Positions 1,476 through 14,032 of a DNA stretch of 64,000 bases are shown here, in pieces. How positions within the stretch are numbered: the stretch's first letter is position 1; each line of letters begins with the position of its first letter. A program made the position numbers and the translations under genes. Location of the stretch: NCBI GenBank assembly GCA_963645945.1, contig CAVIUA010000024.1:8394-72393 (forward strand), given 5' to 3'. Under the pieces are notes generated by a model. The model did not search any database. It saw only the letters and a program-made list of their open reading frames with translations, and had not been told where the DNA came from. This DNA is from a bacterium (GTDB taxonomy: Bacteria; Bacillota_I; Bacilli_A; RF39; UBA660).

Positions 1476-1503
1476 ACACAGACCTAAATGGCTCTGTGTT
1501 TTT
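1476..1503 (+). terminator. Rho-independent terminator after the surface-protein gene
   Basis: The stem aacacagacc / ggctctgtgtt is about 9 bp with one bulge, has loop taaat, and is followed by TTTT. The ORF-track start at 1496 lies inside this hairpin. Confidence 0.6.
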
Positions 1504-1519
1504 GAAAAAATTTAATTTA

Positions 1520-1837
1520 AAACTTACAAAACACGATATTGAACAAGGGACGGTAACTACTTCAAACCTTGATTCAATTTATCGTGAACAAAAAGGTGAG
1601 TGCTTTCTTCTTGAAATTATTCCACCAGAAACCTTTGCCTTTGCTATTAATGCTATTCAAAAGCGACCAGTAGTTATAACCAATGAAACTGGAAAAGACA
1701 AGATTGAAGTAAGACATATATTGCCAATCACAATCGCTATTGATCATCGAGTTCTTGACTATTCTGATGTTGTTCCATTAATGAGATAGTTTGATGAAAT
1801 ATTTGCTAATGCCAAAATTATTCAAAGTTGGAAATAG
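1520..1837 (+). pseudogene. Relic of the C-terminal catalytic domain of a 2-oxoacid dehydrogenase E2 (dihydrolipoamide acyltransferase)
   Basis: The translation GTVTTSNL...IIPPETFAFAINAIQKRPVV...IEVRHILPITIAIDHRVLDYSDV matches the E2 pattern GGTFTISNLG..INPPQ.AILG.G.I..RPVV...V...M.LSLS.DHR.IDGA. There is no lipoyl or E1/E3-binding part and no credible start. An in-frame TAG at 1787-1789 is followed by 15 more codons of E2-like tail (FDEIFANAKII). Confidence 0.5.
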
Positions 1838-2006: not shown

Positions 2007-5000
2007 GTGATGAGAATGTTTAAAAAAAAGATAGCTAATTTAGTCATTAATCAATTACCTTTAGCAAAAAATAAAAAAAAATTACTATTAAGTTCTATTG
2101 TTTTGATAGGACTTTTAATAATGATTATAAATTCTTCATTTGCTAATCTAACACCAGTATCAAGTATAATTATACCTTCAACTACATTGTCATACGAAAG
2201 TAATGAAGAAGGTTCCTGGCAAATAACTAAAACAGCATCCTGGTTAAATAAAAGTAAAGCAAGAATTAATATAGAAGTAGATACAATTCAAAAAAGAAAA
2301 ACAGAATATACAGACATTGTATTAGTGTTAGATATCTCAGGTAGTATGCAAGGGAGTAAATTCATTAAAGTACAGGAATGCATAAATAGTCTAATAAGCG
2401 AAACAACTCAGAAAGGAAATAAAATTGCGTTAATTGCCTTCAATAATAATGCAACAATAGTTAATAATTTTACAACTGATACAAATACATTACAAACTAG
2501 CGTAACTAACTTAAAACCATCAGCTGGAGCAAACTATTATCAAGCACTAGTAAAAACTGGAGAATTATTAAGTTCATATACAAAAGAGGATAATAGAGAC
2601 TGCGTAATAATATTCTTAACAGATGGACTACCTACAATTGATACACCGAATGAAGTAGGTGAATACAATTATCTTAAAAACAAATATAATTATTTAGAAA
2701 TTATTGGTATTCAATATGAACAAGGAGATGAAGTTCTAGGAGCATTAAAAAACATAACTGATACACAATATATTACTGATAAAAATAACTTGAGTGAATA
2801 CCTAACAAAAGCCTCAACAACAACTTTATCTTATGATACTTTTGAATTAACAGATTACATTAATGAAGAATATTTTAATTTAAATAAAGATGCTACAGTA
2901 AATGTAACTTCTGGAGAAATAAGCATAAATAAAAATAAAATAATCTGGAATTTATCAGGACTAAAAACAGGAAATGCTGCATCACTTACAATGGATATAA
3001 ACTTAAATAGTGATTTAGTAGGAGTAGGAGGTACCTATTCAACTCATACACAAACGGATTTATCCTATAAAATAGATTCAACATCACAAACAGAATCGTC
3101 TAAAAAAACTACAGTATTGAAAGACAAATATACAGTAATATATAATGGAAATACTCCATTAGGTTGTACTGTATCAAATGTACCAAGTTCACGTAATTAT
3201 TTTGTATATGATACAGTTAAAATAGACGAAACAAATCCAGTATGTAATGGATACCAGTTTCAAGGATGGGAGATAGTTAATACCAATGTTAAAAAAATAA
3301 ATGAAAATGAATTCACTATGCCAGAAGAAAATGTAACCTTAATCGCAATATGGAAAAAATTAAGTATTATAAAAAATATAGATGGAACTGTATCCTCTGT
3401 TCCATCACTATATGAAAAAATTGCTAAAAAGACAAATGGATTAGATCAAAATATAGACTTTAGTGCTGTACCAAACAGTTCGGAATCTGGAGTCTATACC
3501 AGAAGTTCAACTTCAGAAGATATATATCCAGTATATTATTATCGTGGAAATGTTGATGACAACAATGTTCTATTTGCAGGACTTTGTTGGAAAATAGTAA
3601 GGACAACAAGTACTGGCGGAGTAAAACTCATTTATAATGGTTCATATGATGAGACAAACAAATGTAATAATACAGGAGAAAATAGTCAAATTTCACTTGG
3701 TGAATTTAATGCACAATATACAACAGCATCAGATGTAGGGTACATGTATGGTAAAAGATACGAATATAGTACTTATCAGTCACCAGGTGTTAATGTATTA
3801 ACAAGACATTCTAGTAGAAATACGACATATTATTATGCATCGTCTATTAGCTATTCATATTCATCAGGAACATATACTCTTGAAGAACCTTCTAAACAAT
3901 CTTGGACAGATAATTATAGCAATTTAATAGGATATTATACATGTTTAAACGAATCAACAACATGTACAAAAGTCTATTATGTAGTAGCAACAGATAACAC
4001 ATATCAGTACGATGTGAGTTTATCATCAGGATATACTAATCCAAACGAAGAAACAATTATTTTAGGTGAAAATATAATAGATAATGGTGATGGTACATAT
4101 TCTTTAGAAAATCCTACTTTAGTAAATAAGATAGACTGGTATAGCAATTACAATACTTATAAGAATTACTATATGTGCAAAGGATTAAGTACTACAACAT
4201 GTAATAACAAGTATCTTGTAACAGCAACAAGTAGTTATAGAATAACATATGATGATACAAATAATTATGTATATGGAAATGATGTATATTGGGATGGTTA
4301 TCAATATAAACTTGTAGATACATATAGTTCAACAAACTCCTGGTCAAAAGATAGAACAACTCTCGCTAAAAAATATCATTATACATGTCTTAATACAACA
4401 GGAAAATGTAGCCAAGTATATTATATTCAATACTTTGGTAGTAGTTCAGTTATATATTATTTAACAATGTCATCAGGTGAAAATATAGAAGATGTCAAAG
4501 AAAAAATGTTTACAAATATTTCTGATTCAACAATCAAAGAAGCATTAGATACCTGGTATAAAAACAACATGACTAGTTATACTGACAAACTCGAAGATAC
4601 CATCTGGTGTAATGATAGAACTATATATTCCGGGTCATTAGCTGGAAAAGATGTAAATGCCACAACTTCTTACTCTAGATTTAGTACATATAATAGAGTT
4701 TATATCGAACTTAATCCAACACTCTCTTGTTCTAATTTATCAAGAGACGGTTTCACAGTTTCTACAGATTCTGGAGGAAATGGTAAATTAACTTATCCGG
4801 CCGGACTACTAACAGTTGATGAAGTTATTTTAGCAGGAGCAACAAGTAAAACTAACACAGATTATTATCTATATTCAGATTCACAATATTGGCTTATGTC
4901 ACCGGCTGGATTTAGTACAAGTTTTCATTCTTGTACGTTTAATATCAATTCATATGGAACTTTGGCTAATAATCGTGTAGTAGGAAAATATGGAATAAGA

Positions 5001-5081
5001 CCTTCAATTTCCTTATCATCTGGAGTTAAGACATCAGGCGGTCTTGGAACGGTAGATGACCCATACGTAATTGACAGTTAA
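2007..5081 (+). CDS. Large membrane-anchored or secreted adhesin-like protein: N-terminal TM/signal anchor, VWA domain, Listeria-Bacteroides repeat, C-terminal Cys-rich module
   Basis: The signal anchor is KKKLLLSSIVLIGLLIMIINSSFA. The VWA domain has an intact MIDAS motif DISGSMQGSK (nt ~2313-2817) plus the LTDG motif. The Listeria-Bacteroides (Flg_new-type) repeat is KYTVIYNGN...GYQFQGWE...ENVTLIAIWKKL (nt 3126-3362). The C-terminus reads YWLMSPAG...GIRPSISLSSGVKTSGGLGTVDDPYVIDS. The start could be GTG 2007, ATG 2010 or ATG 2016. Confidence 0.8.
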   Translation: MMRMFKKKIANLVINQLPLAKNKKKLLLSSIVLIGLLIMIINSSFANLTPVSSIIIPSTTLSYESNEEGSWQITKTASWLNKSKARINIEVDTIQKRKTEYTDIVLVLDISGSMQGSKFIKVQECINSLISETTQKGNKIALIAFNNNATIVNNFTTDTNTLQTSVTNLKPSAGANYYQALVKTGELLSSYTKEDNRDCVIIFLTDGLPTIDTPNEVGEYNYLKNKYNYLEIIGIQYEQGDEVLGALKNITDTQYITDKNNLSEYLTKASTTTLSYDTFELTDYINEEYFNLNKDATVNVTSGEISINKNKIIWNLSGLKTGNAASLTMDINLNSDLVGVGGTYSTHTQTDLSYKIDSTSQTESSKKTTVLKDKYTVIYNGNTPLGCTVSNVPSSRNYFVYDTVKIDETNPVCNGYQFQGWEIVNTNVKKINENEFTMPEENVTLIAIWKKLSIIKNIDGTVSSVPSLYEKIAKKTNGLDQNIDFSAVPNSSESGVYTRSSTSEDIYPVYYYRGNVDDNNVLFAGLCWKIVRTTSTGGVKLIYNGSYDETNKCNNTGENSQISLGEFNAQYTTASDVGYMYGKRYEYSTYQSPGVNVLTRHSSRNTTYYYASSISYSYSSGTYTLEEPSKQSWTDNYSNLIGYYTCLNESTTCTKVYYVVATDNTYQYDVSLSSGYTNPNEETIILGENIIDNGDGTYSLENPTLVNKIDWYSNYNTYKNYYMCKGLSTTTCNNKYLVTATSSYRITYDDTNNYVYGNDVYWDGYQYKLVDTYSSTNSWSKDRTTLAKKYHYTCLNTTGKCSQVYYIQYFGSSSVIYYLTMSSGENIEDVKEKMFTNISDSTIKEALDTWYKNNMTSYTDKLEDTIWCNDRTIYSGSLAGKDVNATTSYSRFSTYNRVYIELNPTLSCSNLSRDGFTVSTDSGGNGKLTYPAGLLTVDEVILAGATSKTNTDYYLYSDSQYWLMSPAGFSTSFHSCTFNINSYGTLANNRVVGKYGIRPSISLSSGVKTSGGLGTVDDPYVIDS

Positions 5082-5100
5082 AAAAATATTCAAATACTCA

Positions 5101-5135
5101 AAACGACATGAAACACCATGCCGTTTTTGCTTTTT
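5101..5135 (+). terminator. Rho-independent terminator after the VWA gene
   Basis: aaacgacatg-aaacac-catgccgttt forms a 10-position stem with 1 mismatch, followed by a T-rich tail. It covers the ORF-track ATG at 5118, which argues against that start. Confidence 0.6.
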
Positions 5136-5207
5136 ATCAATTACTTTATATTGACTTTTAGGCAAATTTATAGTATAATATGCAGGCAAGTAAAGGACTG
5201 GTGCGAT

Positions 5208-7238
5208 ATGAAAAGTATTTGGAAAAAAGAAAAAACAATATTAAGTTGTGAACAAGAAAAACAAATTGATAGTTTCTTCGCAAATCTTGAAGAAAGTAAG
5301 ACCTTAGAATATCGTGCAGGTCAACATACCATGGCATTAGATATAGCTGATGCTATAAAAGACCGCAGTATTTTATTAATAGAGTCAGGCGTAGGATCAG
5401 GTAAATCCTGGGCCTATTTAGTGCCTTTGATATATGCAAGTTCTGGTAGTGATAAATTTAAAGGATTCATCATTTCAACATCATCAAAAGCTCTACAAGA
5501 CCAATTGAAAAAAGAAATAGAAACTTTATCTGAAATGCTAGGTTTGCCAAAGAAGATAGATGTTACTATAGCTAAAGGTAGAACTAACTACTTATGTAAA
5601 AGACGTTTTGAATATTTTGAAAAAAATGCTGGTCAAACCGAAAAAGTAAAAAGTATTAAGGATAGAATAAAAGAAGGTAAGGTAGAACGAACAGATTATA
5701 ATGATATTAGTCAAATAGACTGGAAGAAAATGAATGTTGATAAAGTTAGATGTACTAACTGTTTGTATGAATCGGAGTGTACTTATCGAGTAAAAAGAAA
5801 GCGTTGGCCAGAGTCAAAAGCTATTATTTGTAACCATAACTTATTAGTAGAATCATTAAAAAGAAATGGTGTAAATCCTTTATTAAATGAACCATCAATT
5901 CTAATTGTAGATGAGGCTCATACTTTAGAAGAAAAAATAAGAGACTCTTATAAAAAAAGTTTAAATAAGCAGGAATTAGAATCATTAATTTATGGATTAT
6001 ACCGTTATTTGAATAAAAATGTTAAAAACGATATACCCGTTCTTGGTACTATCAATAGTCTATTTAGAAAAATAAGTACTAGCGCCAAAAGAGAATATAA
6101 TAAACACGCTATTGAAAATGTTGATGTTTTTGATTCTGAAAATTCTGGTTTTAAATGTACTGCTGCCATAAAAGAATCAATAGGAACATTAATAAAACAA
6201 TTAGAAGAATTAGAAGAAGAAGCAATATTTAATAATGGTTATAACAGAACTAAAGACTTCATAGAACAAATTAATGCCTTACAAGAGACTAAACGAGCTT
6301 TTCAAGATCTAATTTTATCAAATGAAGATCAAAAGAATGTTTACTGGGCAGTCTTCTTACCTGGGACAAAAGAACATATTGAAATACAATATGTACCAAG
6401 AAACATACCAGAGCTTGCCAGAAATTTATTGAAAAATCCAAATTACGGTAAAGTATTTACATCAGCAACTCTAACAACTGAAGGAGATTATGAGTACTTC
6501 AGTAAAGGATTAGGAATAGATAATAAAATAGGTAGTCGTATTACAACAGAAGACCCACAAAAGTCTCCCTTTGATTATAATAACAACGCTATGCTATATT
6601 GTCCTTTAGACTTAGTATCGCCAAAGGATCCTGATCATGACAGTTACTTATCGTCTATTTCTACAAGAATTAATGAATTATTAGATGTAACTGAAGGAAG
6701 AACACTAGTATTATTTACTTCTAAAAGTGATATGCGTGAAGTATATAATAGAATAAAAGGTGAAAATAAACCTTACAACATCTATCTTCAAGAAGATGGG
6801 CAAGACATAGAAACATTAAAACGAAATTTTAAAGAAGATACAACTTCTTGTCTTTTCGCAACTGGTTCATTCTGGGAAGGCATAGATATTAAAGGTGAAT
6901 CACTAGAAAGTGTTATCATACCAAAACTACCATTTCATGTCGTAGATCCTGTAATGGATGCTAAAGCAAAGTACTATGCCGGTGGCTCAAATGCTGTCTA
7001 CTTACAAGATATGCTTATAAAATTAAAACAAGGAGCAGGACGTCTAATTAGAAGTGAAACAGATAAAGGAATAGTCTCAATTCTAGACTCTAGGATAAAA
7101 GACTATGGCGAAGCAGTTGAAGAAACTCTACCATTTACAAAAATAACGGATGACATTGAAAAAGTAAAAGACTTTGCTGCCGAGGCCTTGAAGAAAGAAA
7201 AAGGTATTCAAAAAGTAAAAACAAATAATCAAAAATAA
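5208..7238 (+). CDS. DinG/XPD-family (Rad3-like) SF2 DNA helicase with a putative 4-Cys Fe-S domain
   Basis: Walker A is ESGVGSGKSWAYLVP and the DEAH box is VDEAHTLEE. Other motifs are FTSATL, GSFWEGIDIKG and QGAGRLIRS. Cysteines lie between the Walker motifs (YLCKRR, VRCTNCLYESEC, IICNHN). I moved the start to ATG 5208, which has TAGTATAAT at 5171-5179 and an AAAGGA RBS upstream. The ORF-track start 5118 lies in the upstream terminator. Confidence 0.8.
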   Translation: MKSIWKKEKTILSCEQEKQIDSFFANLEESKTLEYRAGQHTMALDIADAIKDRSILLIESGVGSGKSWAYLVPLIYASSGSDKFKGFIISTSSKALQDQLKKEIETLSEMLGLPKKIDVTIAKGRTNYLCKRRFEYFEKNAGQTEKVKSIKDRIKEGKVERTDYNDISQIDWKKMNVDKVRCTNCLYESECTYRVKRKRWPESKAIICNHNLLVESLKRNGVNPLLNEPSILIVDEAHTLEEKIRDSYKKSLNKQELESLIYGLYRYLNKNVKNDIPVLGTINSLFRKISTSAKREYNKHAIENVDVFDSENSGFKCTAAIKESIGTLIKQLEELEEEAIFNNGYNRTKDFIEQINALQETKRAFQDLILSNEDQKNVYWAVFLPGTKEHIEIQYVPRNIPELARNLLKNPNYGKVFTSATLTTEGDYEYFSKGLGIDNKIGSRITTEDPQKSPFDYNNNAMLYCPLDLVSPKDPDHDSYLSSISTRINELLDVTEGRTLVLFTSKSDMREVYNRIKGENKPYNIYLQEDGQDIETLKRNFKEDTTSCLFATGSFWEGIDIKGESLESVIIPKLPFHVVDPVMDAKAKYYAGGSNAVYLQDMLIKLKQGAGRLIRSETDKGIVSILDSRIKDYGEAVEETLPFTKITDDIEKVKDFAAEALKKEKGIQKVKTNNQK

Positions 7239-7251
7239 GGAGGTAAAATAT

Positions 7252-8241
7252 ATGGATTTTGTAAAAGTTACTGATGATAAAAACATAAATAGTTTACTAG
7301 CAGCCATAAATCAAAACTTAAGAACAACTAATTATATACAAAAAGAAATGCAAAAACGAAACACTTCACAAAGTGTTTTTGTCAGCAACTTTTCTGATGA
7401 AAATCCTCTTATAGAAGAAATATCTCCTTTCTTATCAGAACAAGAAACTGATCAATTTGAAAATGACATTTTATATTACATGAGTGAACTATCATCACTT
7501 AAGACAGGTTCTAGTAAAGATGAAATAAGGGAAGTTTTACCCGATAAAGATGACTATGATTATGAAAAAGTTTTACTAAGACTAATGGCTGAATTAGTAA
7601 GAGAAAATAATGATATGGCAATTTTTTCTGATGAAGAGGGAGTTTCCTTAGAAGAAAAGAAATTTTTAGCTTCTGAAATAGAAGAAAACTTAAGAAGAAA
7701 AGACATTTTAAAAGAATTAGTTACTGAAAAAGAAAAAAAAGAAGAAAGCGAAGTTCATGAAGAAAATAAATTGATATTCATGCCAACTCAGTCTGGAAAT
7801 CCTTGTGTTATAAGTGAATTAAAACACATTGACTCAGAATACTATGAAAGTTTTGCTTCTTTATTTGAATCTATTATTACTGGAAAATTTAAAAACTTAC
7901 GAAAATTTAGTCCAAACAGCGCTGTTGCTGGACTATTCGAAGTAAAAGATTTTGCTATAAGAGTTATTTTATCAAGACTAGGGCCAAGAGAATATTGCGT
8001 AATATCCGCTTTTACTAAAAAGACTGATAGTAATAAAGATTATCAAGAACAAATAAATCTACGTGCCTCTAATTTTAGAAAATTAGAAGCAAGTCTAAAA
8101 GAAAATATTAAAAATGATGAATTTATGCAACTACAAGCTACTTACCAAGAAGAATTATTTAACATGTTAGGAAGAGAGTCTAAAAAAGGAATACAAAAAG
8201 AAAAAAAGGATGATTTAAATGACACTACAAGAAATAATTAA
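7252..8241 (+). CDS. Hypothetical protein: acidic N-terminal region of about 170 aa plus a C-terminal RelE/HigB (Gp49-like) toxin-fold-like region
   Basis: A GGAGG RBS lies 13 nt after the helicase stop. The C-terminal segment LIFMPTQSGNPCVISELKHIDSEYYESFASLFESIITG...AGLFEVKDFAIRVILSRLGPREYCVISAFTKKTDSNKDYQEQINLRASNF fits the Gp49/HigB pattern (I.F....G..V.EFL..L......I...I..L..G....K.L..GLYELR....IRI.Y......IVLLHGF.KKT.KTP..EI..A..R). Confidence 0.55.
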   Translation: MDFVKVTDDKNINSLLAAINQNLRTTNYIQKEMQKRNTSQSVFVSNFSDENPLIEEISPFLSEQETDQFENDILYYMSELSSLKTGSSKDEIREVLPDKDDYDYEKVLLRLMAELVRENNDMAIFSDEEGVSLEEKKFLASEIEENLRRKDILKELVTEKEKKEESEVHEENKLIFMPTQSGNPCVISELKHIDSEYYESFASLFESIITGKFKNLRKFSPNSAVAGLFEVKDFAIRVILSRLGPREYCVISAFTKKTDSNKDYQEQINLRASNFRKLEASLKENIKNDEFMQLQATYQEELFNMLGRESKKGIQKEKKDDLNDTTRNN

Positions 8242-9955
8242 TGAGGTAAATTATCGTCTTTCACTATTAGAAAAATCTACTATAGAACCAGATCCAGAAT
8301 TACTATTCTTAAGAGAATTTACTAGTACAACTTCAACAGCTGATATTGAAACCATTAGTAGAATAGATGAAAGCGCTATATTTTTAGCTTACTTAACAGC
8401 TAAAACAAACTTCCAATTTGAAGCCTTAAGAGAAAGAATTGAAGATGTTAAGCCTTTAATAAATGATCCTAACATGACCCAAAAAAAATTAACTAACGTC
8501 TTCTGCGGTATGATTTCTAATTGCGATTTTACAGGACCAACTGAAGCAGCATATAGAACTAGTAAAATAGTTGCAAAAGTAAAAGAATCAGCAAAAGAGA
8601 AAAAGATAATTCAAATATTAAAAGGTAACGATTTATCAGAAGAACTTTTACCATCGGCTAAAGCTATCATTGAACTAGTACTTTTTTTTAATTCAGATAT
8701 TATAGCGGGACGCAGTTTTGATGATGAAGTTACAGATGAACTAAACGAAGCCTTAAGTAAAAGATTAGACATCTTTTCAGATGCATTTATACTTATGGGT
8801 ACTATAAAGAGTGCCAGAGAAATATGCAATGGAACAAGTCCTCATATTTCACTTGTTGATGATAATGACAACGTTGTCTCAATTTATGATGAATCAATTA
8901 CTAAAAAAAATAAAAAATACATACATAAACAAGTAAGTAAACTTACAGATTACAAAACTGTGACAGCTAATTATCATACAATTAGTAAATATCATCAAGA
9001 AAAAGAAAGTAGATTAAATAAAATAATTAAAGGCCGAAATAAAAAAGCTCAGCAATATAGAAACTTTATAGCATCACTTGAAAAAATGGATTTACCTGGC
9101 GAGATAACATCTTATCAAGCATCACTTGAATTTTTACCAGATGAAGATTTAAAACTTGAATTTCTAAGATTTGTCTATGAAAATAATTTAAGAGAAGGAG
9201 AGAAACTCCAAGAAGAATACAATAAAACATTCTCTAAAGGAAGGGCGACTTATGCCAGAATTTTATCTAAACATTCCCTACCTAATAGTGAAGAATTTCT
9301 AGACTGTGTTATTTCAAGGTACACTGAAGAAGAACTAAAAACTGTTTTAGAAGATATTGGAAAACTAGGTATAACTGACATTGATAGCGTCTATCAAGTA
9401 TTATCAACAAGTACCAGTAAAACAATTTCTACATTACGTTCTCTTACTGAAAAAGAAGTAATATCAAAAGACTTTTATAAGACACACATGAGTATTTTTT
9501 CTAGCGAAAGTCCTACTTATAAAACTGCTTTAACAAATATTAATTCTTTTACTGCTTCTGGCCTTAATCCAAAATATTTATTTTTAAATCCAAACATACT
9601 ATTAAGTGATAGCACTTCTCTAAAAAGAAGTATTGAACTACTAAAAGATGAAAACTTGCTTGGCAGTATAACGAAAGATTCTGATATCTCATTCCTAACT
9701 TCTTCTGATTTAGAAGAAAGAGTTAATACTATGATATTTGCTAACTGTTATGGATCAGTATCTGATAACATAGATTTATTAAATTATAGTAGTACTAGAT
9801 GGAAAAGAGTAGTTGTTATGCAAACTATTGATATGCTAGTTGCTAAAGAAGACTTATCTGCCTTCTTAGATAGAGATGATTTCTTTATACCTGACAGTAA
9901 AATAGATAGTTATATACCAACTATACCTAAAATTACTAAGCCAAGCACTAAGTAA
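8219..9955 (+). CDS. Hypothetical 578-aa protein, predicted all-helical, no recognised catalytic motif
   Basis: The long ORF overlaps the previous gene by 23 nt and has an AAAGGA RBS. The C-terminal half has repeating segments of about 30-35 aa of the form L..LG(I/L)..(D/S)....L......L. It shares a transcription unit with the DinG-like helicase. Confidence 0.6.
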   Translation: MTLQEIINEVNYRLSLLEKSTIEPDPELLFLREFTSTTSTADIETISRIDESAIFLAYLTAKTNFQFEALRERIEDVKPLINDPNMTQKKLTNVFCGMISNCDFTGPTEAAYRTSKIVAKVKESAKEKKIIQILKGNDLSEELLPSAKAIIELVLFFNSDIIAGRSFDDEVTDELNEALSKRLDIFSDAFILMGTIKSAREICNGTSPHISLVDDNDNVVSIYDESITKKNKKYIHKQVSKLTDYKTVTANYHTISKYHQEKESRLNKIIKGRNKKAQQYRNFIASLEKMDLPGEITSYQASLEFLPDEDLKLEFLRFVYENNLREGEKLQEEYNKTFSKGRATYARILSKHSLPNSEEFLDCVISRYTEEELKTVLEDIGKLGITDIDSVYQVLSTSTSKTISTLRSLTEKEVISKDFYKTHMSIFSSESPTYKTALTNINSFTASGLNPKYLFLNPNILLSDSTSLKRSIELLKDENLLGSITKDSDISFLTSSDLEERVNTMIFANCYGSVSDNIDLLNYSSTRWKRVVVMQTIDMLVAKEDLSAFLDRDDFFIPDSKIDSYIPTIPKITKPSTK

Positions 9956-9956
9956 A

Positions 9957-9985
9957 GTTGACAGGATAAAATAGTTATGCTATAA
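9957..9985 (+). promoter_or_regulatory. Consensus sigma-A promoter of the rplU operon
   Basis: TTGACA (9957-9962), a 17-nt spacer and TATAAT (9980-9985). Confidence 0.8.
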
Positions 9986-10092
9986 TCTAGATGTTTGACG
10001 CCTCATGCTCAAACCGCATTGAAAAGGTTATAAACAATTTATTGTGCCTTAAGAGCGAGTCTTAAGTTATTAATTAAAGGAGGTAATTATTA
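9986..10092 (+). promoter_or_regulatory. Structured 5' leader of rplU-prp-rpmA (candidate L21 ribosomal-protein leader)
   Basis: The UTR is about 100 nt and carries hairpins gtttga(9993-9998)/tcaaac(10009-10014) and cttaag(10048-10053)/cttaag(10061-10066). Bacillota are known to carry an autoregulatory L21 leader at this position. I did not verify a match to the published consensus. Confidence 0.4.
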
Positions 10093-10395
10093 ATGAACGC
10101 TGTAATTAAAGTTGGTGGAAAGCAATATTACGTACAAGAAAATTCTGAAATTTACGTAGAAAAGCTTGATGCTGAAGCTGGAGACACAGTTAAATTTGAT
10201 CAAGTTTTAATGCTTGACAGTAAAATTGGTAGTCCTTATCTTACTAATGTTACCGTTGAAGGCGAAGTAGTTAAAAATGGTAAACAAAAGAAAATTAAAG
10301 TTTTCAAGTATAAGAGTAAAGACAGATCTAATCGTAAGACTCAAGGACATAGACAACCCTTTACTAAAGTTAAAATCACTAAAATTAACGGTTAA
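10093..10395 (+). CDS. rplU: 50S ribosomal protein L21
   Basis: The N-terminus is [16 protein letters not shown] and the C-terminus is [11 protein letters not shown]. The gene sits in the canonical rplU-prp-rpmA order. Confidence 0.95.
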
Positions 10396-13052: not shown

Positions 13053-13126
13053 ATAAAAAAAAGTAATTGCTTACAAATAAATTTATGATATAATTTAAAT
13101 AGATTAAGATTGCGAAGGTGAAAAAT

Positions 13127-14032
13127 ATGTACGATGTTAAATTTTTAATATCAAACGGAGTAGATGTAAATAAAAGTTTGGAATTATTTGGTGATATAGA
13201 TACTTACAATGATACAGTTGGTGAATTTTTGGTAAGTGCTAAGGAAAAAATGGCTAAGCTTCAAAAATATAAAGATGATAAGGATATGCCTAATTATGCG
13301 ATTTATGTTCATTCATTAAAAAGTGATGCTAAATACTTTGGATTTACAAAGTTAGCAGATTTAGCATATGACCAAGAGTTAAAGAGTAAAGAAGGAGATA
13401 TGTTCTATATATATGAACATTATCAAGAATTAATTGATGAAGTAGAAAAAACTATAAATATTGTTAAAAAATATATTTCTCCCGAATCAGAAGTTGCTCA
13501 AAGTGATGAAAAAAATTCAACAGCAACAAGTACAACAGTATCTCCAGAAGAAGTAGCATCTGTTGCATCTGCACAAACTCCAGCACCAGCTTCTGCTACG
13601 ACATTACCAACATCATCTAATATTGAGCCAGCTGAAGTATATTCACAAAAGACAATTCTTGTAGTTGATGATTCTAATATTATTAGAAATTTCGTAAAAA
13701 GAATATTTAGTGAAAACTATAACATTGGTATGGCAAAAGATGGAGAAGAGGCTTTAAATATTATAAAAGCTAATGTTTCAAATGAAAATATAGTAGCAAT
13801 TCTACTAGATTTAAATATGCCAAAAGTAGATGGCTTTGCTGTATTGACATATATGAATGAACATCAATTATTCAGTAGTATGCCAGTTTCAATAATATCT
13901 GGTGACTCATCAAAAGATACAATTAACAAAGCTTTTACATATCCAATTATTGATATGTTAGGCAAACCATTTACAGAAGCAGATGTAAAAAGAGTAATTG
14001 AAAAGACAATGTATTTTAAAGAAAATATGTAA
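13127..14032 (+). CDS. Hpt (histidine phosphotransfer) domain plus receiver (REC) domain protein, no output domain
   Basis: The Hpt motif is YVHSLKSDAKYFG, followed by an S/T/A/P linker. REC motifs are ILVVDDS...LLDLNMPKVDG...GKPF. I preferred ATG 13127 (GAAGGTG RBS) over GTG 13118. Confidence 0.75.
   Translation: MYDVKFLISNGVDVNKSLELFGDIDTYNDTVGEFLVSAKEKMAKLQKYKDDKDMPNYAIYVHSLKSDAKYFGFTKLADLAYDQELKSKEGDMFYIYEHYQELIDEVEKTINIVKKYISPESEVAQSDEKNSTATSTTVSPEEVASVASAQTPAPASATTLPTSSNIEPAEVYSQKTILVVDDSNIIRNFVKRIFSENYNIGMAKDGEEALNIIKANVSNENIVAILLDLNMPKVDGFAVLTYMNEHQLFSSMPVSIISGDSSKDTINKAFTYPIIDMLGKPFTEADVKRVIEKTMYFKENM

Follow-up and report, generated by a model that had tools for sequence, protein, structure and literature searches.

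The window analysed here is a stretch of 64,000 nucleotides (nt), with a G+C content of ~30%, from contig CAVIUA010000024.1 of the bacterial assembly GCA_963645945.1, and all coordinates given below are those of the window unless another contig is named. Between the gene of a large predicted surface protein and the ribosomal protein gene rplU, it carries three closely packed genes, coding for a DinG-type helicase and for two further proteins of 329 and 578 amino acids (aa), which are named here p2 and p3. The main subject of this analysis is the p2-p3 pair, which is considered as a candidate toxin-antitoxin-like or defence module kept at a fixed chromosomal site. The region presents the following features, some of which are described from AlphaFold2 (AF2) models and their predicted local distance difference test (pLDDT) values:

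5100-5135, plus strand: intrinsic terminator of the upstream surface-protein gene, composed of a hairpin (5100-5127) and the U-tract after it; it bounds the unit on the upstream side.
5151-5179, plus strand: σ70-type promoter-like site TTGACT-17-TATAAT before the helicase start (11/12 consensus matches).
5118/5208-7238, plus strand: helicase open reading frame (ORF), 676 aa from the ATG at 5208.
7252-8241, plus strand: p2 ORF, 329 aa.
7252-7761, plus strand: p2 N-terminal region (aa 1-170), acidic and helical, with low-pLDDT, disordered residues 38-64 in the AF2 model.
7762-8031, plus strand: predicted HigB/gp49-type RelE (BECR) domain of p2 (aa ~171-260), recognised by Foldseek and by aligned pocket residues.
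8032-8241, plus strand: p2 C-terminal helices and basic tail (aa 261-329), with AF2 helices at 262-285 and 289-305.
8219-9955, plus strand: p3 ORF, 578 aa.
8219-9058, plus strand: p3 N-terminal half (aa 1-280), helical and hypervariable, with a mean pairwise identity of 34-55%.
9059-9955, plus strand: p3 C-terminal half (aa 281-578), formed by the second hairpin arm and then a helical-repeat region, better conserved.
9958-9986, plus strand: rplU promoter-like site TTGACA-17-TG-TATAAT with an extended –10 element (12/12 matches); downstream boundary of the unit.

The helicase and p2 ORFs are separated by 13 nt (7239-7251), the p2 start codon is preceded by AAGGAGG, and the p2 and p3 ORFs share 23 nt (8219-8241). 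The ATG at 5208 is the likely helicase start, because the promoter-like site lies inside the longer ORF and homologues start at this codon. This site is a consensus match only, and the count of such sites in the region was not above shuffle expectation. RNA folding of the upstream terminator hairpin gave a free energy of –8.3 kcal/mol (z –4.0), with 0/200 shuffles equally stable, and a simple consensus terminator scan did not list it. At the other end, the rplU promoter-like site begins 3 nt past the p3 stop codon, and rplU itself starts at 10093, followed by prp-rpmA-obg. The ~105-nt leader between this site and rplU (9987-10092) matched no Rfam family at the gathering threshold, L21 leader included, and no Rfam family reached threshold anywhere else in the window.

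The first gene of the operon codes for a predicted superfamily 2 (SF2) iron-sulfur (Fe-S) helicase of the DinG/YoaA family. Its product presented the Pfam domains DEAD_2 (33.7 bits) and Helicase_C_2 (128 bits, 4e-37), both above cutoff, as well as the Walker A motif GSGKS63, the Walker B motif DEAH235 and four cysteines between the two (Cys130, 182, 185 and 191), which together are the features of DinG/XPD-type SF2 Fe-S helicases. The protein aligned over its full length to the NCBIfam YoaA model (372 bits) and to the PADLOC typeIV_DinG model (371 bits) and stayed below the equivalog cutoffs of NF053712 (372 vs. 680 bits), NF005981 (310 vs. 789 bits) and NF008729 (278 vs. 598 bits); on these scores it is a member of the family and not an assignable YoaA or DinG orthologue. 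Unlike typical Firmicutes DinG, it carries no N-terminal DnaQ-type exonuclease domain. An analogy with type IV CRISPR that had been drawn for this gene did not hold: the helicase scored 124 bits with the Csf4 model TIGR03117, the cutoff of which is 400, and no tandem (CRISPR) array was found within the 64 kb, so that a link to these systems was rejected. No cas genes were present there either, the neighbours being surface-protein and ribosomal protein genes, and the typeIV_DinG match is read as generic DinG similarity. What the window helicase has in common with CasDinG (Csf4), DinG, YoaA and XPD are the Walker A, DEAH and four-cysteine motifs and the two Pfam domains, whereas it differs from DinG, YoaA and CasDinG in being unusually polymorphic within one species and in falling below the curated cutoffs.

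The p2 protein is acidic, with an isoelectric point (pI) of 4.85 overall and of 4.46 for the N-terminal 170 aa, and this N-terminal region was its most variable part, with a mean pairwise identity of 45-58% versus 72-93% in the toxin-like domain. The AF2 model presented a pLDDT of 79-93 over residues 170-310, save for 69 at residues 221-230. When this model was compared by Foldseek with the Protein Data Bank (PDB), the top matches were all HigB toxins, including 6af4_A from S. pneumoniae (E 2.5e-4), 7awk (M. tuberculosis HigB1) and 7nbu_Y (ribosome-bound HigB1); these three matches ranged in E from 2.5e-4 to 4e-3, with a probability of 1.00 and template modelling (TM) scores of 0.58-0.61 normalised by the target. 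Moreover, hhalign placed p2 residues K214, E230, K232, R237, R242, F254 and K256 on K58, E66, R68, R77, R82, F93 and K95 of M. tuberculosis HigB1, respectively, with weak statistics (P 0.0095) and a register consistent with the fold match. In HigB1, residues K58, E66, R68, R77, F93 and K95 make up a mutationally supported catalytic pocket, and R82 contacts 23S rRNA (PMC9098466). Among 22 p2 family members, with identities down to 22%, K214, E230, R237 and K256 were invariant, K232 and F254 were at least 90% conserved, and R242 was variable, while HigB1 N73 found no clear equivalent in p2, where the loop is shorter. Judged from the model and from these residues, p2 is a member of the BECR superfamily, in its HigB/gp49 branch. 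It was not recognised by the PF05973-type model, as no Pfam match was obtained at E <= 1, and the p2 family profile found no match among PDB sequences.

The AF2 model of p3 was all-helical, with a mean pLDDT of 84, and began with a helical region at the N-terminus, to which a long basic hairpin (helices 243-288 and 309-351, pI 9.2) and then C-terminal helical repeats were joined; comparison of the protein with itself revealed a weak internal repeat signal of ~95 aa (P 0.012). An exhaustive profile search gathered a family of 401 clusters at 50% identity, 225 of them at E <= 1e-30, whose members are nearly all 600-640 aa long, and a homologue search with a broadened p3 alignment brought no new sequences. 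Eight residues (L316, N323, Y478, D503, E507, G509, N522 and R530) were near-invariant in 136 sequences, and no conserved catalytic-looking motif was observed in the family alignments. Most of the p3 relatives carry a conserved C-terminal extension (consensus RTYxIxG...SxNKVxRNL), which is absent from the window p3 and its closest alleles. Searches with 75 diverse relatives gave no consistent Pfam domain, only scattered chance matches, and the same was true of PADLOC; the family profile had no match among PDB sequences, and Foldseek against the PDB and BFVD (viral structures) returned nothing significant. The closest structures were a TALE repeat, with a probability of 0.8, and MTERF3, with one of 0.28, and TM was <0.25 for each, values that leave an mTERF-like p3 unsupported. 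A RecN, SMC or EzrA-like identity was also discarded, since p3 presented no P-loop, no transmembrane segment and no Pfam match.

The earlier note on this DNA, made from its letters alone, had described the operon anatomy (ORF coordinates, 13-nt gap, 23-nt overlap, terminator and –10 element upstream, rplU promoter downstream), a DinG/XPD-like Fe-S helicase, an acidic first partner with a toxin-like RelE fold and a 578-aa helical second partner without recognisable motif, and these descriptions were borne out by the ORFs, consensus scan, RNA folding, domain searches and structure models above. It knew of no described system of this composition, and the PADLOC run matched neither partner of the window.

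The distribution of the pair was assessed by scanning one genome per GTDB species for p2 relatives. A relative was found in 26 species, most of them recorded as 'Bacilli bacterium' metagenome-assembled genomes or as 'Mycoplasma sp. CAG:877', and a few under other labels, possibly due to binning errors; we take the hosts to be uncultured gut Bacilli, probably of the order RF39. A scan of metagenomes added 30 further loci of the same kind, which came from the human gut where the record names state a source. At every locus with enough sequence, p2 was directly followed by a p3 relative, and the two genes were nearly always coupled, with an overlap or a gap of <=3 nt kept in 22 pairs from 20 species. 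Adjacency of the helicase, in turn, was restricted to the closest clade, made up of L001-L007, L009, L020 and related metagenome loci (the L numbers being our labels for the loci compared), and in most lineages (L008, L010-L019, L021-L026) the pair had no helicase next to it. By this pattern of co-occurrence, the conserved unit is the p2-p3 pair and not the trio, which the earlier note had treated as a unit.

An obligate three-component system of nucleic-acid surveillance, in which the DinG-type helicase would sense or unwind foreign DNA and activate the RelE-type effector, would be in line with the tight operon (13-nt gap, 23-nt overlap, a single promoter and no internal terminator). It would also agree with the helicase lying within the peak of divergence described below, where its arch region (~aa 251-375) is its most variable part while the motor motifs are 95-99% identical, and with its unusually fast evolution between species (59% identity where RuvB presents 96%). 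Nevertheless, such an obligate trio is decidedly unlikely, given the lineages in which the pair lacks an adjacent helicase, the coiled-coil protein found instead of it in L059 and L008, the free reassortment of helicase alleles against p2-p3 alleles, and the fact that the helicase, which adjoins addAB, could by its score just as well be a repair helicase of the YoaA type. The protein in the helicase position of L059 (4344-6386) and L008 has 680 aa, and its coiled-coil nature and Pro/Ala-rich tail ruled it out as an alternative motor. At the same two loci, a 406-aa ORF without Pfam match (L059 10342-11562) is inserted between rpmA and obg.

As to genomic context, the pair was mostly placed directly upstream of rplU-prp-rpmA-obg. 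Other contexts were nfo-pair-telA, mutS-nusB-xseAB-pair-SpoIVB-type peptidase, and a series formed by a SEC-C protein gene, a ~175-aa ORF, the pair, a penicillin-binding protein gene and a ~335-aa membrane ORF, in which the ~175-aa ORF is presumably a signal peptidase gene and the ~335-aa ORF presumably mraY. In several unrelated contexts among L013, L015 and L001-L019, the gene just upstream of the pair was a DNA repair gene, namely addA, dinG, nfo, or xseB with mutS nearby, which may be a coincidence or a hint of a link to DNA damage. Loci were also collected independently of p2 and p3, by anchoring on an identical L27 protein, which gave 26 contigs and, from them, 10 contexts; all 10 presented the order addB-addA-HisPhos-(NUDIX)-[helicase]-p2-p3-rplU-prp-rpmA-obg-EEP-RR-yebC-ruvAB-queA-tgt. 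Moreover, the IMG/VR viral contigs contained no p2 relative, and GenBank phages and PLSDB plasmids gave no match to either p2 or p3. With the pair in the housekeeping block in all 10 contexts and no copy in the phage, plasmid or viral collections searched, a mobile or patchy island, about which the earlier note had asked, can be discarded; the locus is neither patchy among close relatives nor in a mobile context, and its sequence is nonetheless hypervariable.

This constancy brings in the explanation that the pair is a lineage-specific housekeeping factor, in which a domesticated RelE-type domain would serve ribosome-associated mRNA surveillance or rescue, or the pair would be an accessory of repair or replication, with p3 as a fast-evolving, helix-rich and non-enzymatic scaffold. 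The constant presence of the pair, fixed beside rplU-prp-rpmA-obg or elsewhere beside repair genes (addAB, dinG, nfo, mutS-xseAB), the lack of mobile-element hallmarks and of phage or plasmid copies, and the purifying selection observed (ratio of nonsynonymous to synonymous divergence, dN/dS, of 0.1-0.5) all speak for a housekeeping role. We hold it to be rather unlikely, and the features that count against it came from the comparison of alleles within one population.

This population set was composed of contigs L057, L058, L060-L066, L002, L003, L067 and L069, and the comparison extended over ~17 kb. The flanking genes were 94-100% identical in nt, and at the aa level RuvB, YebC and RuvA were 100% and Obg 98-100% identical, from which we infer that the contigs represent one species-level population. 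Within it, the helicase gene was 82-88% identical in nt, with at least 4 alleles of 78-91% aa identity to that of the window, and at least 5 allele classes of p2-p3 were present. The aa identities of p2/p3 to the L057 allele were 94/78% (L067), 89/84% (L064), 69/59% (L069) and 58/44% (L061); the window allele was 95/96% identical to L057, and a class designated allele B reached only 60-68% nt and 57/44% aa identity. The peak of divergence started ~300 nt inside the helicase gene and ended exactly at the p3 stop codon, from which point onward nt identity was back to 93-100% (99-100% in rplU). The synonymous divergence (dS) of the trio was 0.45-1.3, versus 0.1-0.25 in the flanks (3-10x), and its dN/dS was 0.15-0.36, versus 0-0.1 in most flanking genes and up to ~0.3 for HisPhos; the ratio rose to 0.3-0.5 in the N-terminal parts of p2 and p3, and in the segment of the p3 N-terminal half it was 0.33-0.42 versus 0.13-0.23. 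The combination of high dS with dN/dS well below 1 indicated that the alleles are old and functional, and result neither from recent drift nor from decay. Consequently, it is disfavoured and very improbable that p2-p3 is what is left of an ancient toxin-antitoxin insertion, in decay or without function and evolving by neutral drift. The absence of recognisable families and the very fast sequence change would be expected of such a remnant; however, the ORFs are intact and keep a constant length and architecture in ~400 clusters at 50% identity, the catalytic-pocket residues are invariant, and translational coupling is kept.

The alleles were also found to be exchanged in modules. Allele B was 95/91% identical to the L001 allele, which belongs to another species whose EEP and response-regulator proteins were only 69-79% identical, a pattern that points to trans-species sharing or introgression. 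Recombination breakpoints were observed between helicase and p2 and within p3, and in L067 only residues 1-280 of p3 were replaced, with 38-78% identity to L057 in this part versus 88-100% over residues 281-578. Most of the variation among strains fell, in the helicase, on the arch region (aa 251-375) and the C-terminal tail, which are hypervariable, and, in p2 and p3, on the N-terminal region and the N-terminal half, respectively. Each protein also had its conserved part, namely the motor motifs in the helicase, the BECR domain in p2 and the C-terminal half in p3. Furthermore, two species carried tandem, divergent p2-p3 pairs (L014 6994-12888, 45/40% identity; L018 9980-15697, 35/29%). Metagenome chimeras were rejected as the source of this mosaic, as each allele class recurred in independent samples with the same flanks, and as allele B was similar and not identical to the allele of the other species. 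As a separate observation, the rplU-prp-rpmA segment of L002 (4900-5806) matched a different species, with Prp 98% identical to L001 and 84% to its own population, which suggests that a recombination tract reaching from p2-p3 into the ribosomal genes was imported.

These findings bear directly on a housekeeping role for the pair. Weak constraint would lift dN and not dS, so that a dS 3-10x that of the flanks, together with alleles shared across species, implies old or imported alleles; tandem divergent copies and the exchange of the p3 N-terminal half would be unexpected for a scaffold, and no homologue was found among characterised proteins of solved structure or curated families (Pfam, NCBIfam, PDB profiles). 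The earlier note had considered a lineage-specific repair module an equal alternative, and the intraspecific divergence pattern favours a conflict-type function over plain repair. It had also named conservation at one syntenic position with core-like conservation of sequence as the outcome that would count against its proposal: the conserved position was indeed found, and the core-like conservation was not, given the sharp intraspecific peak and the multiple old alleles.

Among known systems, the HigB/gp49 type II modules (S. pneumoniae HigBA, 6AF4; M. tuberculosis HigB1 of the toxin-antitoxin-chaperone system TAC, 7AWK/7NBU) share with p2 the BECR/RelE fold, the aligned Lys/Glu/Arg/Arg/Phe/Lys pocket residues and a toxin gene upstream of and coupled to its partner, and HigB1 likewise has a long helix after the beta-sheet. 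In contrast to these toxins, p2 has 329 aa, among them an acidic N-terminal region of 170 aa and additional helices at the C-terminus, and is missed by the Pfam model; unlike HigBA, its partner is a 578-aa helical protein without a helix-turn-helix (HTH) and not a HigA of ~100 aa, and the p2-p3 locus is chromosomally fixed and vertically kept instead of mobile. Type II antitoxins are usually small, carry a DNA-binding domain and neutralise the adjacent toxin by direct binding. The gene order and coupling of p2-p3 fit this scheme, and the size of p3 and its lack of an HTH or ribbon-helix-helix (RHH) do not.

A second likeness concerns the anti-phage system Menshen (NsnABC), whose effector NsnC, like p2, is composed of several domains, with a BECR domain of the RNase type at the C-terminal end and strong polymorphism in the N-terminal region. 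In the PADLOC searches, 6 of 22 p2 relatives, though not the window's own p2, weakly matched the NsnC model at positions 222-291 of 294 (best E 4.6e-5), and the C-terminal end of NsnC is its BECR domain according to the Menshen study (PMC12065111). The N-terminal region of p2 differs from that of NsnC in being helical and not inPIN-like, only the BECR end of the model was matched, by some relatives, and no NsnA (ParB-DUF262) or NsnB (ABC ATPase, DUF3696) gene lies in or next to the operon. In CapRel-like fused or sensor toxin systems, a conserved toxin domain is kept inactive by a variable domain or partner, which recognises the phage trigger, and variation accumulates in this sensor. The likeness of p2-p3 to such systems is one of concept, and its toxin fold and architecture are different. 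The architecture of p2, the p3 family and the fixed but hypervariable population structure had no match in the family libraries searched, and no description of them came up in the full-text searches of papers that were made.

A role in genetic conflict, such as that with viruses or other selfish elements, is favoured over one as a plain repair or ribosomal accessory because five features are combined in the pair: an RNase-type domain with a preserved pocket, a toxin-first coupled gene order, deep alleles at one site, modular exchange of the putative specificity region, and tandem divergent copies. In the gp49 family the toxin gene precedes the antitoxin gene (PMC11980606), and in p2-p3 the toxin-like gene likewise comes first, with the partner gene overlapping it. 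The resemblance of some p2 relatives to NsnC, the allele shared with another species, and the presence/absence polymorphism of a NUDIX gene and the gene remnant immediately upstream, both described below, also speak for this role. We therefore put forward p2-p3 as a toxin-antitoxin-like or defence module that is fixed in the chromosome, polymorphic and equipped with an RNase effector, a reading whose chances we judge to be evenly balanced. In such a module, p2 would be the effector, its HigB/gp49-type BECR domain binding the ribosomal A site and cutting mRNA, as the fold and the aligned catalytic residues suggest. The p3 protein would be a non-enzymatic helical partner restraining p2, sensing a trigger, or both. 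Its N-terminal half, exchangeable and hypervariable, would confer specificity or serve as the sensor, and its conserved C-terminal half would be the portion that stays constant. Release of p2 would then result in translation arrest and, through it, in abortive infection or dormancy, or in post-segregational 'addiction'; an addiction-type module replaced only by allelic exchange would account for the presence of the locus in every context examined. In the clade of the window, the helicase may belong to the module as a third component peculiar to that clade, or may feed into it, for instance by sensing nucleic acids, as suggested by its sharing the operon and the hypervariability; it would not be required elsewhere.

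Several observations weigh against this toxin-antitoxin or defence reading. The pair was present in every context examined, at a fixed housekeeping position across deep divergence (Obg down to 77% identity). Defence genes seldom show such constancy at a core site; the majority of defence systems and toxin-antitoxin modules have a patchy distribution and are located on mobile elements, and the viral, phage and plasmid collections searched held no copy of p2-p3. Neither p2 nor p3 of the window matched Pfam, NCBIfam, PADLOC or PHROGs, the misses in the first three being the ones that tell here. No HTH, RHH or other DNA-binding or antitoxin domain was detected in p3 by Pfam or by structure, and p3 is far larger than any HigA known to us. 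In addition, dN/dS was <1 even in the variable segments, so that positive selection was not demonstrated, and the species-level population was delimited by the flank identity of metagenome contigs and not of isolates. What the present data show are the anatomy, the fold, the conservation of residues, the distribution and the pattern of polymorphism, whereas an RNase activity of p2, its interaction with p3, a trigger and a phenotype are inferred.

A bolder form of the same idea is possible, although we would lean against it: p2-p3, joined in one clade by the DinG-type helicase as a third part, may constitute an undescribed immune or addiction system, which a whole lineage of uncultured gut Bacilli with small genomes would carry at a fixed core site. 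In it, a ribosome-dependent BECR RNase would be under the control of a new-fold sensor of ~600 aa, and strains and species would exchange the N-terminal module of this sensor, in a balanced polymorphism. Just as tentatively, such a polymorphism might be compared to the shuffling of specificity subunits or sensors in other defence systems.

The neighbourhood of the operon was variable on its upstream side, where the window presents the following additional features:

10-1449 and 2007-5081, plus strand: two large predicted surface proteins sharing a similar C-terminal region.
1496-1789, plus strand: 97-aa ORF, remnant of a 2-oxoacid dehydrogenase gene.

The second surface protein, of 1024 aa, carries a VWA domain and Listeria-Bacteroides repeats, and relatives of the surface proteins occurred upstream of the helicase only in L004, L005 and L020, so that this side is structurally variable. 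The 97-aa ORF is considered a gene remnant because it matches only positions 139-212 of the acyltransferase catalytic domain of 2-oxoacid dehydrogenase. L069 carries an intact 306-aa copy of this gene directly upstream of the helicase; the window is rearranged there, with the VWA surface-protein gene standing between remnant and helicase. A NUDIX gene coding for 134 aa and lying immediately upstream of the helicase (L057 4000-4404) was polymorphic for presence or absence within the same population (vs. L061, L064 and L066). On the downstream side, two genes past obg, the window carries on the plus strand (13118-14032) the gene of a 304-aa protein with Hpt and receiver domains, which was 55-92% identical across the loci compared; its position near obg recalls the spo0B-obg linkage of Bacillus.

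If the toxin-antitoxin or defence reading of p2-p3 is true, a whole uncultured lineage of the human and animal gut, whose genomes are reduced, retains at a core locus an RNase module of the toxin type, the diversity of which arises through exchange of alleles and not through gain and loss. Fixed loci of this kind are missed by design in island- and pangenome-based defence discovery. The pair would also add a new family of partner or sensor proteins, with ~400 clusters at 50% identity and no Pfam or fold match, and a new multidomain architecture to the RelE/ParE superfamily. The polymorphic DinG-type helicase raises the question of whether a 'repair' helicase is itself in genetic conflict in this clade. 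Even if the pair has a housekeeping role, its conserved RelE-type domain, encoded next to ribosomal genes, would deserve attention as a candidate for a new factor of mRNA surveillance.

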